Origin: Escherichia phage RB32
Reading direction: 5' to 3' (one strand)
Sequence record: NC_008515.1
DNA: 64,000 nucleotides
Positions 11,927 through 18,850 of this stretch are shown one piece after another. How positions within the stretch are numbered: the first letter of the stretch is position 1; each line of letters begins with the position of its first letter. A program made the position numbers and the translations under genes. The notes below the pieces were generated by a model. It worked only from the letters and a program-made list of their open reading frames with translations, searched no databases and was not told where the DNA came from.

Positions 11927-12186
11927 TTAAAGTATTCCCGCAATTGGTCAAATCCACCAATATAACTTCCATCAGGAGCAAATACCTGAGGCATTGTCAA
12001 GCCGATTTGAGTATCACGACCTAGTTTCGTCAGAAGCTCAGCAATTTTCTCATCATCAAAAACACCTTTTTCCGGCATAATGTTGATAAATTCAAACGGC
12101 TGTTTCTTCACGGTCAAAAGACGTTTTGCATTATCACAATACACGCATTTATGAATGTTGCTATCATAACCATATACTTTAAACAT
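11923..12186 (-). CDS. nrdC: Thioredoxin/glutaredoxin NrdC
   Basis: 87 aa with CVYC redox motif (MFKVYGYDSNIHKCVYCDNAKRLL); matches T4 NrdC as recalled. Confidence 0.9.
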   Translation of the reverse strand: MFKVYGYDSNIHKCVYCDNAKRLLTVKKQPFEFINIMPEKGVFDDEKIAELLTKLGRDTQIGLTMPQVFAPDGSYIGGFDQLREYFK

Positions 12187-12187
12187 A

Positions 12188-12430
12188 TTATTCCTTAATT
12201 CCTAGTACTTGTTTAAAAGTCTCGTCGTAATCAAGACTTTGGCCCGTTTGTTCTTTATATTTGTATATAATATCACTTACTTCTGATAGCATATTTTTAT
12301 ATGAACGAGTTAAAGCAGATTTAAGCACGCTGTATCTATCAGGAAATTTACCATGTTCATTATAATAAGCTATTGTTAATTCACGGACTGCCTTTTCAGC
12401 AGTCTCCATATATTCTTTACGCTTGGTCAT
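12188..12430 (-). CDS. Hypothetical small protein (80 aa from [13 protein letters not shown])
   Basis: Non-overlapping part of 127-aa track ORF. Confidence 0.45.
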
Positions 12431-12731
12431 TTTCTTCTCGGTCAAATCGGTGTTTACAATGACGACATTTATAACGAAGATTACTAGTCTGCCAATGGAC
12501 CAATTGCACCTGTTCAGTTCCACATTCAGGGCAATTAGGAACGTTTTTAGAAGCCCTTTCGCGACGTTCAACCATGACCATTACAGAATCCCAATTAACA
12601 GGAGGGCTATAATCATCACAACCATGAATCTTTCCACGCATTTCCAGATCGTCTTCTTCACCAGCCATAATAATTTTAATTAGACTAGAATTACTTGAAG
12701 CTGCAATGTCTTCTAATAGACGCTTTTTCAT
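12417..12731 (-). CDS. Zinc-ribbon protein
   Basis: 104 aa with CPECG..(20)..CRHCKH four-Cys arrangement. Confidence 0.6.
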
Positions 12732-13654
12732 TTCAATACCTCAATAGCATTGCGTAAACCATTTGCTTTGGCGGTTAAAGCCTTAAGAACTTTAGTATGC
12801 TCTTCAATTTGTTTTTCAACTTCAATCAAACGAGCATTGAGATATTCGCGTTCTTCTTTCATAGTATCATTCCCATGATTGGATTTTGGTGTAGGTTTAA
12901 ATTCACTAGGGTCCTTTAATTTAATAACAAATTTAGTTTCAAACAGCGAAAGACCATAATTCGTATTATCATCAAAGGATTTGACTACATCCATATCAGA
13001 TAATAACACGCGTAAATTATAAGCCAAAGAACTAATAGTTTCATTGTGTTTATTAGCTTCGCGTGGTTTCATATACGGAAGATTTTTATATATCTCGTGC
13101 GGAGCACAAATGATAATTGACAATTCAAATTGCCCATTCTGGGACGATGGAGTGAATTTAGCCGTAACCCAGTCTTTTACATTCACATTAATAGTACGGT
13201 TATCACCATGACAAAACAGTCTACGAGAATGCTTAAAAAGCATATTCACGTTATTATTGAATTCGTGTGAAAATTCACTAGCAAATTTTTCTTTACTATC
13301 TTTAGAAAACCATTCTTCTAAATAAGTTCTTTTCACGTCGTTAATAATATTAAATGTAACAACACTAGCATTTGATACATTAGTCTCAATGTAGCTTGGA
13401 TACATAAATTTTTTAACATTATTAACAGCTATCACAGAAGATAGTAATCGGGAACGTTTGAACCACTCGAGCAAAGAACCAAGAGAATGTGAATACGCAT
13501 TTTGTGTATCTTTACAAATATGGTTTTCCCATCCAATATAGTCTAAAAAATCACGAAGAATATTATTGATTACTGCTCTGTGCCCGATCTGATAATTACG
13601 GTGTTTAGTAATAAGACTGTCAAAATAATCAATATAATGTTTACGAGTTTTCAT
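12728..13654 (-). CDS. Coiled-coil-tailed hypothetical protein, paralog family member 1 (308 aa)
   Basis: Long ORF; C-terminal amphipathic helix [31 protein letters not shown]; N-terminal YIDYFDSLI resembles member 2. Confidence 0.75.
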   Translation of the reverse strand: MKTRKHYIDYFDSLITKHRNYQIGHRAVINNILRDFLDYIGWENHICKDTQNAYSHSLGSLLEWFKRSRLLSSVIAVNNVKKFMYPSYIETNVSNASVVTFNIINDVKRTYLEEWFSKDSKEKFASEFSHEFNNNVNMLFKHSRRLFCHGDNRTINVNVKDWVTAKFTPSSQNGQFELSIIICAPHEIYKNLPYMKPREANKHNETISSLAYNLRVLLSDMDVVKSFDDNTNYGLSLFETKFVIKLKDPSEFKPTPKSNHGNDTMKEEREYLNARLIEVEKQIEEHTKVLKALTAKANGLRNAIEVLK

Positions 13655-13706
13655 ATTCTTCTCACTTGGTTAATGGTTTATACTCCGAGCCATCCTTGGC
13701 TTTAAA

Positions 13707-14708
13707 TTACTTAATTAACTGTAAAGCTTGTTCAAGACGATCAAGACGATTAACGGATTCTTCCCAAATCTTTTTAGCCTGCTCATATTCTTTCTGCGCT
13801 TTATTAGAAATTTCTAGAACTTCTTTATAAGCTTTTTCTAGTGCAATAACTTCTGGACGAATTTCTATCGGTTCAGGTGAATCATCAAGACATTCCATTA
13901 GTTCCTCAAGGGTAGTTTCTTCTTTAGGAGTATTCACAATTTCATCACATTTTTGTTGGTAAATTTCTTTATCAGTAGGTGAATAAGCACATTTCACTTC
14001 ACGAAGGCTAATTATAATTTTATATCCTTCCCAACCACACATATTTTTGAAAGGATATGTATGAATACTTTTTACAGTTTCCATACAGCCCAAAACCGCC
14101 TCTAATTGATAAGTTATAGTGCTAGCAATTGAGAAAAATTTATTAATGCTCTTTTGGTTAGCTTCTGGTGTAAAAAATCCATAATTCACAAAAATAGATA
14201 CTTTATTTTTATCAAGTTCATATTCTTTTATGATAATCATATCAGAAGCCAAAGGATGAATTTGACGATAATCGCCATAACATAATTTAGAAGCTGATTT
14301 TAGAATTTGTCCTTTGAAAAGTCTGAAATTACTAATCCAACGACGAGTAAAAATATTCTCAGGGTCTTCTTTATTATTGAGATGATAAGAATTAACATCA
14401 CCGAACCAATTATATCCTACTACATCTTTAGTTCGTTTAATTTCTTTCCCAAAATTACCAAGAATATCCCGATTAACCAAATATGAAAGAAGACGAGACT
14501 CTTTAAAGGTTTTCTTGATAACATCTTTATCTACACGGCTAGAAATTTTACGAACTTCATGAATAAATTTGCCGGAAGAAACAATACCTGCATCAACACT
14601 ATTGAGCCATTGATTGATAATAGAAAGAACGCTATTTTGGCCAAACATCGGTATAGCTTTATCATCAATAACGCTATTGAATGATTTGATATATTCGTTA
14701 CGAGTCAT
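13707..14708 (-). CDS. Coiled-coil-tailed hypothetical protein, paralog family member 2 (333 aa from MTRNEY)
   Basis: Start chosen at Met with GAGGAG Shine-Dalgarno; C-terminal helix KEYEQAKKIWEESVNRLDRLEQALQLIK. Confidence 0.75.
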   Translation of the reverse strand: MTRNEYIKSFNSVIDDKAIPMFGQNSVLSIINQWLNSVDAGIVSSGKFIHEVRKISSRVDKDVIKKTFKESRLLSYLVNRDILGNFGKEIKRTKDVVGYNWFGDVNSYHLNNKEDPENIFTRRWISNFRLFKGQILKSASKLCYGDYRQIHPLASDMIIIKEYELDKNKVSIFVNYGFFTPEANQKSINKFFSIASTITYQLEAVLGCMETVKSIHTYPFKNMCGWEGYKIIISLREVKCAYSPTDKEIYQQKCDEIVNTPKEETTLEELMECLDDSPEPIEIRPEVIALEKAYKEVLEISNKAQKEYEQAKKIWEESVNRLDRLEQALQLIK

Positions 14709-14736
14709 ATTAATCTCCTCAGTAGAAAGTAAGAAC

Positions 14737-14766
14737 ATTATACCACATCCTTGTGGCAAAGTAAAC
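14737..14766 (-). promoter_or_regulatory. T4-type early promoter (-35 GTTTAC, 18-nt spacer, -10 TATAAT)
   Basis: Minus-strand GTTTACTTTGCCACAAGGATGTGGTATAAT between family members 3 and 2. Confidence 0.6.
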
Positions 14767-15788
14767 TAGTTCAGTGCATTTAGTGCATTGTTCAGTTTAG
14801 AACGTTGCTTTGTCAGATTTTGAACCCTTGACTGAGCTTGTTCTAACGCCTTTTCAGCTTCTAGCACTTCATTGGTAGCTTTAACGAGTTCATCATCTAC
14901 TGCCTTAAGAGACTTCTCAATCGCGTCAGCGTGCCATTTTTCTACAGGTTTAAAATTTGAATTTTCAGTAGGAAGAAAACTCACTTTATTAAGTTTACAT
15001 GCATCTATATTGCTTGAGCTATACATCCAAAATTTAGGATCGTTTGATAAGTAATTGGATAAATTTAAGTTATCTTGCACTTCCTGCTTTTTCTCTTGCG
15101 GGACTTCGTCCTTTCTCAAAAAATCGTATTTAAATGAAACGATCATATCAAGTTCATATGTTGTTGTATGTTCCCAATTTCGCTCAAAACGAGGTAAAAT
15201 CTTAGATTGAACAGCAGCAACAACATCCATATACTTAAATGCTTCTGTCAGCTGTGATTTAAGACATTCACAAATTGAAAGAGAATTTTTAGTATTAGGC
15301 TTAAAGCTAATTCGTGCAGTTCTATTATTTTCTTTTAACGGTCTTACTTCCATCTGAAGAGTATAACCATCAAATTTCAGATTCTTTAAGTTAATATCAG
15401 AGCCTTTTAATCGACTAGCAGTAGACAAAATTTGCTTTAATTGTCTACGGAACAGAGCAATAAATCTCCATTCAATACGATAATGATTTGGATTGAAAAA
15501 TCCAGATGATAAATCGACCTTACTTTGACCAACGCCTTGAACAATCAAAGGATTTTTATAATCAATAGTTTTACAGAAATCGGTGAGCTGTTCACGAGCA
15601 GTCATTTGTGTAATATACCCTGCTTTACTAAAATTACGCACCCATTCACTGCTATTCGTATACTTAAAGTGATGAATAACACGATTAACTTTATCAGGGT
15701 CTAAATTATTTTGGCACAAAAATGTCATAACATCACGAGTATAACTGGCATTACGAACCATATCTTCAATTTGAGAACGAGTTTTCAT
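14766..15788 (-). CDS. Coiled-coil-tailed hypothetical protein, paralog family member 3 (340 aa)
   Basis: C-terminal helix EAEKALEQAQSRVQNLTKQRSKLNNALNALN; N-terminal DPDKVNRVIHHF resembles member 4. Confidence 0.75.
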   Translation of the reverse strand: MKTRSQIEDMVRNASYTRDVMTFLCQNNLDPDKVNRVIHHFKYTNSSEWVRNFSKAGYITQMTAREQLTDFCKTIDYKNPLIVQGVGQSKVDLSSGFFNPNHYRIEWRFIALFRRQLKQILSTASRLKGSDINLKNLKFDGYTLQMEVRPLKENNRTARISFKPNTKNSLSICECLKSQLTEAFKYMDVVAAVQSKILPRFERNWEHTTTYELDMIVSFKYDFLRKDEVPQEKKQEVQDNLNLSNYLSNDPKFWMYSSSNIDACKLNKVSFLPTENSNFKPVEKWHADAIEKSLKAVDDELVKATNEVLEAEKALEQAQSRVQNLTKQRSKLNNALNALN

Positions 15789-15796
15789 AGTGTTCC

Positions 15797-16708
15797 TTAA
15801 GATTTAAGTAAATCAACAATTTTAATTAACTTTTCACGCTCAGATTTAGCTTTACTACTCAGTCCAGATAGTCTGAAAATTTCATCATCATATTGTTGAA
15901 TAGAAATATTCAGCTCTTCAATTTGCTTATTAAAATAATCAATTTGCTCAGAATGTTTTTCGTTACTACGAACTGGTACAGGGTTTGTAGGCAATTTAGT
16001 TAAACTGGATTCATCCGGGCGATAAATTAAAATGCAATTTGAACCAATCGGGCATTTAGCACCAGATGAATATTCTAATGTTCCAGATTCTTTTAAAACT
16101 TCAAAAGCTAAACAGAGATGATGCCCCATATTGACATAATCTGTAGAGTGAGCTCTGATATAATAATCATCGCCGCGAATACTAAATTTAAAGCATTTAA
16201 GGTCTTCTGTATTATTGGTCTTAAAAATCATTTGTTTATCTAGACCTTTAGCTAATCGAGCGCCTAATGCTAATAATCGTCGTTGATTTTCCCACAAATC
16301 TGCGATCATTTGACCAAATGATAATTTCGGCATTAGTCGACCATAAAGGTCATATCCTTTATTATAATTGCGAAGGATTTCACTCGCATTAATACGAGAC
16401 AATGCTCCAATTTTATTAAGGGCTTTCATGATGCGATTAGATAAACTCATTCCAGACCCGTTTGTTCGCTGTAAATGTTTTTCTAATCCAAATCCAATAT
16501 CAACTTTAAATTTATCTAAAATTTCAGCATGAACATCTCTGTCAATAACATTCAAATCCAAAGTTGGGTTAAATCTATGAAAAAATTTATCTGGCTCTCC
16601 ACGACGAAATACAGTCCATTCATTCATCATTTTTTTATTAACTAAAGATTTAATTACTGCATTGACATTATTAATTACGACTGACATATTTTCCTCACTC
16701 AATTTCAA
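15797..16708 (-). CDS. Coiled-coil-tailed hypothetical protein, paralog family member 4 (303 aa)
   Basis: C-terminal helix QIEELNISIQQYDDEIFRLSGLSSKAKSEREKLIKIVDLLKS. Confidence 0.75.
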   Translation of the reverse strand: MKLSEENMSVVINNVNAVIKSLVNKKMMNEWTVFRRGEPDKFFHRFNPTLDLNVIDRDVHAEILDKFKVDIGFGLEKHLQRTNGSGMSLSNRIMKALNKIGALSRINASEILRNYNKGYDLYGRLMPKLSFGQMIADLWENQRRLLALGARLAKGLDKQMIFKTNNTEDLKCFKFSIRGDDYYIRAHSTDYVNMGHHLCLAFEVLKESGTLEYSSGAKCPIGSNCILIYRPDESSLTKLPTNPVPVRSNEKHSEQIDYFNKQIEELNISIQQYDDEIFRLSGLSSKAKSEREKLIKIVDLLKS

Positions 16709-17102
16709 TTTTACTAAATATACAGAATAAGATGGAACAGACTATATAAGCACCACACACAGATTGAACTAATACCATTCCAAAGAACCAAACAATATTA
16801 TCAAACAATGTCTGTTTTACGTCGAAAGGACGTAAACTTACAGTAATATTATCACCTTTTTCTATTGAAGAATACATCTCTGGGGAAATATATTCACTAA
16901 ATCTATAACCGTCTTTGAGTTCATATACAGCAATAAACGATAAACTAGACCCCTTTCCTTGAGTTCCTGTAAGGGTATTAACTACAGTAACATCATAATC
17001 TTTATAATGCATATAATCATTAATTGCGTAATAACCATATGCAATTACTATACATAAACAACATATCAATAAATTCAATCTTTTAATTATCAACTGTTTC
17101 AT
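16695..17102 (-). CDS. Membrane protein (N- and C-terminal hydrophobic helices)
   Basis: 135 aa; LLICCLCIVIAYGYYAI and VWFFGMVLVQSVCGAYIVCSILFCIF segments. Confidence 0.65.
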   Translation of the reverse strand: MKQLIIKRLNLLICCLCIVIAYGYYAINDYMHYKDYDVTVVNTLTGTQGKGSSLSFIAVYELKDGYRFSEYISPEMYSSIEKGDNITVSLRPFDVKQTLFDNIVWFFGMVLVQSVCGAYIVCSILFCIFSKIEIE

Positions 17103-17157
17103 AATAATCTCAATTAAAAGGGCTTAGAACCATTATACCATCCTTGGTATAAAGCGG

Positions 17158-17685
17158 TTATGCGAGTACCGTCTTTAACCGTTCTTCAAACTTCCGAAGA
17201 GTATTCTGGCGTTCAGCTCTTTGCTTTTTGTAAGTTTCAATACGCTCTGAAATGAGAGTGTATCGTTCATTTACTGATTCTTTCATAAAATCAGGAATTT
17301 CACGAGAAGCTTTAATCTCATCAAATTTATCAATAACAACTTGCTCTTCAGCAATTAAGTTATCATACATTAAAATATCTTTCTTGATGAACTCAATATC
17401 TTCTTGAGTTACACGAGATAATTTAGATGCTTTATCCTTTTTGTACTGTTCATTAGTATCACGAGACCAGTGTAATGTACGATTTTTATTCGTATTCTTG
17501 TAAATTTCTACAATACCAATCTCATCGATAATAACGATCCAATTCCAACGGGATTTGTAAATTTGTCCTCCATCAACCGTGATTTCACCTCCAATTGAGA
17601 TGTCATTAAAGAACTTGCTTTGTGCTTCAGATTTAAATTTACCATCGTTGTAATTTACCAGGTTGAAAATATCTTTAGCGTTCAT
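17158..17685 (-). CDS. Hypothetical protein with C-terminal charged helix
   Basis: 175-aa ORF immediately downstream of an early promoter. Confidence 0.65.
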   Translation of the reverse strand: MNAKDIFNLVNYNDGKFKSEAQSKFFNDISIGGEITVDGGQIYKSRWNWIVIIDEIGIVEIYKNTNKNRTLHWSRDTNEQYKKDKASKLSRVTQEDIEFIKKDILMYDNLIAEEQVVIDKFDEIKASREIPDFMKESVNERYTLISERIETYKKQRAERQNTLRKFEERLKTVLA

Positions 17686-18130: not shown

Positions 18131-18850
18131 TTAGGATTCTTCTAAATGTCTTTTCTGAAAAGTTGATACCATACTACGATACGGTTCATTTGGATATCCG
18201 TGTTTTATAGCTTCCTTTGTAAATTTTCTCCATCCATATTTAGTTTCTTTCCAAAGCTCGAATAATTCATCTTCATACTGCCATATAGTTAAATGAGAAC
18301 GCTTTGCAGCTTTAATTCCATTAATATGCTTTTCTTTTACTGCAGGATTGTTTAGTTTCTTTTTAATAATATTACTAACTTTTCTAACAAAAACTGGGTC
18401 CTTATATCGTTGCGAAGTTTTTATTGAAGTGTTTAATTTAGCTTCCGGCGTGGATGTGACCTCTTTCATCTTTTTCTTCATATGCTGTATATGATTAGGA
18501 TTTTTCCATAAATTTATAGAATGCTTTTTGCATTTTATCCTAGTTTCATCTGCAACCTTTCCTCCTTCACCCCCGTATGACAGGTTAACACAGTTTTTTC
18601 CATATTTCAATTTACCTGCCATGATATATAATATTTCAGCTTGTACCATTTTATCATAATTATCAAAAACTTCTAAAACCGTTTTTGATAATATGTGGTC
18701 ATTTGACACTTTTACACGTTCTATATAATTTCCACTACCAACATACGAATCATTGATGTTATTAGTTATATGTCGACCATAATAGTATTTCTTAATACCT
18801 GTCTTTAAATTTAATATTTCAGTTTTATAGATAGTAAAATATTTTTTCAT
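18131..18850 (-). CDS. GIY-YIG homing endonuclease (seg-like), free-standing
   Basis: 239 aa; YFTIYKTEILNLKTGIKKYYYGRH..YVGSG GIY-YIG motifs; start overlaps upstream gene stop. Confidence 0.8.
   Translation of the reverse strand: MKKYFTIYKTEILNLKTGIKKYYYGRHITNNINDSYVGSGNYIERVKVSNDHILSKTVLEVFDNYDKMVQAEILYIMAGKLKYGKNCVNLSYGGEGGKVADETRIKCKKHSINLWKNPNHIQHMKKKMKEVTSTPEAKLNTSIKTSQRYKDPVFVRKVSNIIKKKLNNPAVKEKHINGIKAAKRSHLTIWQYEDELFELWKETKYGWRKFTKEAIKHGYPNEPYRSMVSTFQKRHLEES

Follow-up and report, generated by a model that had tools for sequence, protein, structure and literature searches.

The 64,000-nucleotide stretch of Escherichia phage RB32 analyzed here (NC_008515.1; hereafter the window) carries four consecutive minus-strand open reading frames (ORFs), nrdC.3, nrdC.4, nrdC.5 and nrdC.6. 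Profile comparison places the products of nrdC.3, nrdC.4 and nrdC.5 in one family, of which nrdC.6 is probably a fourth member. All four proteins share the same plan: a helical N-terminal domain (~130 amino acids, aa) is followed by ~80 aa arranged as beta-beta-alpha-beta-beta, by 15–55 aa of disordered linker and, at the C-terminus, by a heptad helix 45–60 aa long. The explanation that we favor with moderate confidence is that the array represents a tandemly expanded, fast-evolving family of early, non-essential accessory proteins that neutralize host immune sensors by direct binding, where the body provides specificity and the tail oligomerization. The four genes themselves and the phenotype of nrdC.5 are already known. 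What appears to be unreported in the literature and databases searched is that they group into a single family built on one body-linker-tail plan, that relatives occupy this slot in other Straboviridae as well, and that the tail stays constant while the bodies diversify.

Kinship and architecture of the four proteins

Over positions 12000–17500, the window shares 100% identity with Enterobacteria phage RB33 (Tequatrovirus) and ~96% with T4, and the names nrdC.3–nrdC.6 are those given to the four ORFs in the RB33 and T4 annotation, each with a product labeled "hypothetical". An earlier note, made from the letters of this DNA, had described minus-strand genes of 308, 333, 340 and 303 aa. The first three hold, whereas nrdC.6 encodes 296 aa from the annotated ATG at 16687, which is preceded 5 nt upstream by a GAGG Shine-Dalgarno sequence; the longer version started from a TTG at 16708 and overlapped nrdC.7.

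Pairwise BLASTP among the four proteins gave a sole link, between nrdC.3 and nrdC.4 (E 9e-5). These two are grouped in phrog_1435 of the PHROGs database, with nrdC.5 and nrdC.6 each in a family of its own. We then used hhalign to compare family alignments that drew on database homologs and on the corresponding region in nine further T4-like phages. The probability for nrdC.3 against nrdC.4 was 98.6% (E 9e-16) over the full length; it was 83–88% for nrdC.4 against nrdC.5 (88% without the tails) and 78% for nrdC.3 against nrdC.5. Two bridging sequences (P0236 and P0237) matched nrdC.5 at 97.5% and nrdC.4 at 95.3%, and a Klebsiella Jiaodavirus protein of 322–324 aa matched the nrdC.3/nrdC.4/nrdC.5 family at 97%. 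Based on these scores, the bridging sequences and the Jiaodavirus protein, we consider the three a single family. The mutual similarity expected by the earlier note is therefore present, directly for nrdC.3 and nrdC.4, and through bridges at 95–98% for nrdC.5. Of two short N-terminal likenesses that it listed, YIDYFDSLI and YIKSFNSVI occupy homologous positions in the alignment, while DPDKVNRVIHHF and EPDKFFHRF are left unaligned by hhalign, and their likeness may thus be a coincidence.

The family is not apparent from domain databases. Pfam DUF7235 covers nrdC.5 over its full length (408.7 bits, where the cut-off is 30; E 2.3e-122); nrdC.3 touches the tail part of the model alone (E 0.15), and nrdC.4 and nrdC.6 have no match to it, so that nrdC.5 is the sole DUF7235 member by the Pfam criterion. 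An exhaustive HMMER search with the combined family profile found 17 proteins among 1.84 billion representatives and failed to widen the family beyond these relatives, indicating that it is very narrow.

The assignment of nrdC.6 required a broader profile. Against each single family, hhalign gave no signal (probability ≤1.5%). Against the broadened family profile it gave 90.9% (P 1.2e-6) over 184 collinear columns, falling to 17% (P 1.4e-3) with the tool's own alignments and to 10% (P 3e-3) with the option -M first. The same three motifs were aligned at all settings, for example EWRFIALFRRQLKQILSTASRLKGSD of nrdC.5 with QMIADLWENQRRLLALGARLAKGLD of nrdC.6, and as a single sequence nrdC.6 was the top-scoring non-family ORF against the family profile among 54 in the window. 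Supplying the secondary structure of the AlphaFold models to hhalign changed nothing, with the secondary-structure score still at 0. In a Foldseek search of BFVD, the nrdC.5 and nrdC.6 models both matched the same uncharacterized Straboviridae proteins of ~310–330 aa, including proteins of Klebsiella phage Mineola (E 2e-7 and 1.5e-4) and Yersinia phage fHe-Yen9-01 (E 5.5e-6 and 5.7e-4); that the Mineola match is the ortholog of the aligned Jiaodavirus protein could not be confirmed. The low probabilities against single families and at two of the settings, as well as the separate families in PHROGs and Pfam, would also fit an unrelated gene whose helical N-terminal region, small beta domain and coiled-coil end resemble those of the family by chance. 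We find this unlikely, since the motifs are collinear in every hhalign run, no other non-family ORF of the window ranks as high, the order of secondary structure elements is identical to that of nrdC.5 in independent models, and the Foldseek matches are held in common at E≤6e-4. Furthermore, nrdC.6 adjoins the other three genes, and its terminal tail motif passes the leave-one-out test described below.

The shared architecture proposed by the earlier note is supported by the agreement in domain order between the independent AlphaFold models of nrdC.5 and nrdC.6. In nrdC.5 (predicted local distance difference test score, pLDDT, 68), helices span residues 4–127 and the beta-beta-alpha-beta-beta domain residues 142–219, followed by the disordered linker and the terminal helix (Table 1). 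In nrdC.6 (pLDDT 77), the corresponding segments are helices at residues 3–151, the beta-beta-alpha-beta-beta domain at 166–222 and disorder at 228–243, ahead of the two tail helices. A 175-aa protein from Klebsiella phage KPV15 is a further, weak match to the nrdC.5 model (Foldseek E 3e-3). In line with the earlier note, we found no recognizable catalytic motif in these proteins, nor a known fold or a significant match to an enzyme family. The only polar residue invariant across the families is one Asp in a G-D turn, and the conserved columns are mostly hydrophobic. Profile searches of Protein Data Bank (PDB) sequences with the family found nothing, and the sole match in a PDB profile search with the central domain, a designed repeat protein, was discarded as an artefact. 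Derivation of the central domain from tail completion or tail terminator proteins was likewise rejected, given Foldseek E values of only ~1e-2 and template modeling scores of 0.3–0.46; the tail-completion family PF11367 of Pfam was matched by 1 of 16 family members (E 0.006, below the cut-off). Defense and anti-defense hidden Markov models from PADLOC and NCBIfam gave sub-threshold matches to the coiled-coil tail alone.

The tail is the constant part of these proteins. Scored for heptad a/d positions with a simple test against composition-matched shuffles, all four tails lie 2.4–4.0 standard deviations above expectation. Together with the long helices in the AlphaFold models of nrdC.5 and nrdC.6, this agrees with the heptad-like amphipathic C-terminal helices described by the earlier note. 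Of 13 gap-free comparisons within orthologous groups, 12 showed higher conservation in the last 35 residues than in the body. In particular, identity between the nrdC.3 allele classes is 97% in the tail and 59% in the body, and between genera the nrdC.6 tail retains 58–72% identity versus 29–53% in the body. Between RB33 and T4, the tails of nrdC.4, nrdC.5 and nrdC.6 have a nonsynonymous substitution rate (dN) of 0, with a synonymous rate (dS) above 0 in nrdC.4 and nrdC.6. The extreme C-termini of the four families have a common pattern, approximately R-x-K-L-x-x-A-h-x-x-L-K. We evaluated it with a position-specific scoring matrix (PSSM) of the last 21 residues, leaving out one family at a time: the mean score of the left-out tails exceeded that of every C-terminus among the other 81 ORFs of the window, and the fraction of all 21-mers that reached it was 1.4e-3 at most. 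Comparisons of the tails alone by hhalign were too short for significance (best P 3e-4). The profile matches, the bridging sequences, the tail PSSM and the higher conservation of tail than body together support a diversified family with a shared C-terminal helical tail, as the earlier note had suggested. What is shown for the tail is its conservation, heptad pattern and predicted helicity; its role as a docking or oligomerization module, as raised by the earlier note, is putative.

Conservation of the tail could also result from recombination history if gene ends acted as homology arms for cassette exchange, with no contribution from tail function. Consistent with this, the divergent block of nrdC.3 stops where the linker gives way to the tail, whose DNA, like the flanks, is 93–96% identical. 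However, the nrdC.6 tail is 58–67% identical between genera where the body is 29–38% identical and the DNA is too diverged for homologous exchange, the tails of nrdC.4 and nrdC.6 combine dN of 0 with dS above 0, and the heptad pattern is retained in all families. Recombination history is thus a quite improbable substitute for tail function, although the two are not mutually exclusive and both may hold. A heptad-like C-terminal helix (z 3.4) was also seen in the nearby nrdC.8 (17158–17685, minus strand; 175 aa). Its hhalign probability to the family was below 2%, and it was left out.

Divergence and turnover of the array

The bodies diverge quickly within a stable genomic slot. Between RB33 and T4, body dN/dS was 0.18–0.34 in nrdC.3, nrdC.4 and nrdC.5 and 0.10 in nrdC.6, compared to whole-gene values of 0.04–0.16 in most neighboring genes (nrdC.2 has 0.74 on very few substitutions). 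In nrdC.3, two allele classes of the body (>90% versus ~61% identity) occur in Tequatrovirus within genomes that are otherwise 95% identical. Relative to phage SA21RB, the divergent DNA block (45–78% identity) is confined to 12880–13560, with the tail at ≥93%; the first codons, tail and flanks outside the block have at least 90% DNA identity. In the Tequatrovirus LYE-01 (L012 2910–4922), nrdC.4 is precisely absent, the missing segment extending from the early promoter up to where nrdC.3 starts (window 13660–14740) and leaving an array of three genes; nrdC.4 is therefore present in some Tequatrovirus genomes and absent in others. Copy number in the same slot varies as well, with four genes in Tequatrovirus, three each in differing combinations in Mosigvirus, Dhakavirus and Gaprivervirus, two in tandem in Acinetobacter phage Acj61 and one in Jiaodavirus. 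In every genus compared, the family genes lie between nrdC and nrdC.10. The body dN/dS, the nrdC.3 alleles, the presence or absence of nrdC.4, the range of one to four copies and the narrowness of the family suggest the rapid turnover of an arms race.

Rearranged relatives were found in several records. One is an in-frame fusion (P0056) of nrdC.5 residues 146–272 to residues 134–308 of an nrdC.3 allele, with nrdC.4 deleted (approximately window 13250–15350), present on three contigs of which the longest is ~167 kb. The nrdC.6 of Shigella phage Sf25 (P0121, 378 aa) contains an internal 82-aa tandem duplication that begins midway through the beta domain, spans the linker and extends into the first part of the tail helix. 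On an 803-bp metagenome contig (L013, 120–641), an unrelated, GC-richer N-terminal segment of 120 aa precedes a perfect nrdC.5 tail (P0234), and downstream of this ORF are an early promoter and then the nrdC.4 start. This is either a genuine replacement of the body or a chimeric assembly. We did not use it as evidence of a tail swap, as it is a single contig of that length with a GC-richer 5' part. In Acj61, a distant relative, the region with the two tandem family members (L016 1229–3938) also encodes a nicotinamide phosphoribosyltransferase and a ribose-phosphate pyrophosphokinase, a pair resembling the NAD+-reconstitution pathways reported against NAD+-depleting defenses such as Dsr1.

Counter-defense function of nrdC.5 and proposed mechanism

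By sequence and position, nrdC.5 is the ortholog of T4 NrdC.5, with 94.4% identity over 340 aa, the DUF7235 domain and the same flanking genes. T4 nrdC.5 counters Dsr1, an NAD+-depleting sirtuin: a T4 deletion mutant that fails both on ECOR17 and on MG1655 supplied with dsr1 from ECOR17 is rescued by nrdC.5 on a plasmid (Srikant et al. 2022, PMC9391042). That paper handles a single uncharacterized gene; kinship with nrdC.3, nrdC.4 and nrdC.6, domain architecture and mechanism are not in it. Dsr1 and Avs7 have a sensor domain in common, which responds to the major capsid protein of the phage (bioRxiv 10.64898/2026.01.04.697583). A transposon screen in T4 classed each of the four genes as non-essential (bioRxiv 2025.11.20.689424 supplement). 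The early promoter that the earlier note placed within the array is corroborated, with its motif matching the T4 early-promoter consensus in full (Table 1) and an early promoter annotated at the equivalent position upstream of nrdC.4 in the SA21RB record. The earlier note had also floated anti-defense factors while professing no knowledge of function. The second statement needs correcting for nrdC.5, given its published anti-Dsr1 role, and the anti-defense idea holds for nrdC.5 through its T4 ortholog, with nrdC.3, nrdC.4 and nrdC.6 as candidates. To our knowledge, nrdC.5 is the only known Dsr1 antagonist.

The mechanism we propose is as follows. Family proteins would be made from early promoters, ahead of the late structural proteins, and would bind host immune sensors stoichiometrically. 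In the case of nrdC.5, the target would be Dsr1, occupied before the late major capsid protein appears. The variable body would determine target specificity, and the conserved tail would give homo-oligomerization and hence, we propose, avidity. Paralogs and divergent alleles would cover different sensors or sensor variants. Since their paralog nrdC.5 is known to counter Dsr1, nrdC.3, nrdC.4 and nrdC.6 are good candidates for anti-immunity functions.

Known phage systems offer partial parallels. DSAD1, the anti-DSR2 protein of phage SPbeta, similarly neutralizes a defense-associated sirtuin NADase and is described as inhibiting or repressing DSR2. Structures of DSAD1 reportedly indicate direct binding in competition with the activating structural protein, and the mechanism proposed for NrdC.5 is modeled by analogy on such competitive binding. 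The T4 internal proteins IPI, IPII and IPIII are likewise a diversified, non-essential T-even set in which a short shared module is joined to variable bodies; IPI counters GmrSD and IPIII an unknown ECOR17 system (PMC9391042). Their module, however, is a capsid-targeting sequence for packaging into the virion, whereas that of nrdC.3–nrdC.6 is a C-terminal coiled coil in early genes with cytoplasmic products. Within the same pin-nrdC-mobD accessory region, gp49.2 counters OLD (PMC13096335) and nrdC.1 counters Septu (bioRxiv 2025.11.20.689424). These two neighbors are also early, non-essential and without known domains, but they are small and unrelated to the nrdC.3–nrdC.6 family.

Several observations weigh against the proposed mechanism. 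The published anti-defense experiment is confined to nrdC.5 among the four genes, and its rescue is a genetic phenotype, from which direct Dsr1 binding is a further step. Support for the tail consists of conservation, heptad pattern and predicted helicity, with oligomerization again one step beyond. The evidence for nrdC.6 depends on settings (hhalign 10%–91%), and confidence in the two AlphaFold models is moderate. Additionally, dN/dS is below 1 throughout, and positive selection is hence not demonstrated. It could be that nrdC.5 alone is a counter-defense gene and that nrdC.3, nrdC.4 and nrdC.6 have other accessory roles (host takeover, metabolism) or are drifting duplicates, as would suit the dispensability of all four genes on laboratory hosts, the absence of nrdC.4 from some phages and the limitation of functional data to nrdC.5. 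We regard this as somewhat unlikely, because all four are intact ORFs with dN/dS of 0.09–0.30 and strongly conserved tails, orthologs are kept in at least four genera, and counter-defense genes are abundant at the locus. An enzymatic or indirect mode of action for NrdC.5 and its relatives (by sensor modification, NAD+ metabolism or masking of the capsid protein), in place of stoichiometric binding, is very unlikely in our judgment. The published phenotype is purely genetic, and a fold without informative matches leaves room for an unrecognized active site, but the solitary invariant Asp among mostly hydrophobic conserved columns and the lack of significant enzyme-family matches argue otherwise, and extreme sequence divergence with a kept architecture is typical of binding proteins.

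A broader version of the direct-binding explanation is speculative, and we think it unlikely to hold as a whole. In it, the array would be a modular anti-sensor platform in which the constant tail multimerizes and the hypervariable body silences sensors of conserved virion proteins (Dsr1/Avs7 type), with one sensor variant per paralog or allele. New specificities would arise by body-cassette swaps between phages, for which the conserved 5' end and the tail would supply the homology arms. In its boldest form, the tails of co-expressed paralogs would form one hetero-oligomeric, multi-specific complex.

No phage has been studied more closely than T4, yet the four genes, each ~300 codons long, are still labeled "hypothetical" or, wrongly, "thioredoxin", and in public family databases they are dispersed over three or four unrelated families. 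The link of nrdC.3, nrdC.4 and probably nrdC.6 with nrdC.5 yields three concrete candidates for new counter-defense functions. The domain map of specificity body, linker and tail should help to work out how Dsr1 is silenced, and diverged bodies on one constant tail constitute a natural series for studying the evolution of anti-immune specificity. Relatives are found in the same slot of phages of Klebsiella, Acinetobacter and other hosts relevant to phage therapy.

Coordinates and neighboring genes

Table 1. Positions in the window of the four genes, their tails and associated features
Feature	Position	Strand	Details and basis
nrdC.3	12728–13654	-	308 aa; ORF list and RB33/T4 annotation; PHROG 1435
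nrdC.3 heptad helix, ~residues 262–308	12731–12871	-	heptad z 3.4; tail PSSM
nrdC.4	13707–14708	-	333 aa; ORF list and RB33/T4 annotation; PHROG 1435
nrdC.4 heptad helix, ~residues 286–333	13710–13853	-	heptad z 2.4; tail dN 0, dS 0.11, RB33 versus T4
Early promoter, T4-type, upstream of nrdC.4	14737–14765	-	GTTTAC-N14-GTGGTATAAT; consensus match
nrdC.5	14766–15788	-	340 aa; Pfam DUF7235 (PF23882); ortholog of T4 anti-Dsr1 factor
nrdC.5 long helix, residues 281–339	14769–14948	-	single AlphaFold helix, pLDDT 74–91; heptad z 3.9
nrdC.5 disordered variable linker, residues 225–279	14952–15116	-	pLDDT <50; lowest inter-phage DNA identity of the gene
nrdC.6	15797–16687	-	296 aa; probable fourth family member; start codon and Shine-Dalgarno sequence
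nrdC.6 helices, residues 243–272 and 278–295	15800–15961	-	AlphaFold, one break; heptad z 4.0

Downstream of the array, the start of nrdC.2 (12417–12731, minus strand) overlaps the nrdC.3 stop. In the C-terminal half of its product, several zinc-ribbon families match weakly and below threshold, and two Cys-x-x-Cys pairs (CPEC...CRHC) are present there. Between nrdC.9 and nrdC.10, the window has a minus-strand gene of 239 aa (18131–18850), labeled "putative site-specific intron-like DNA endonuclease" in RB33; T4 has no gene at this spot. In many GenBank phage records, homologs of nrdC.1–nrdC.9 are labeled "thioredoxin", apparently through propagation of the name from nrdC.

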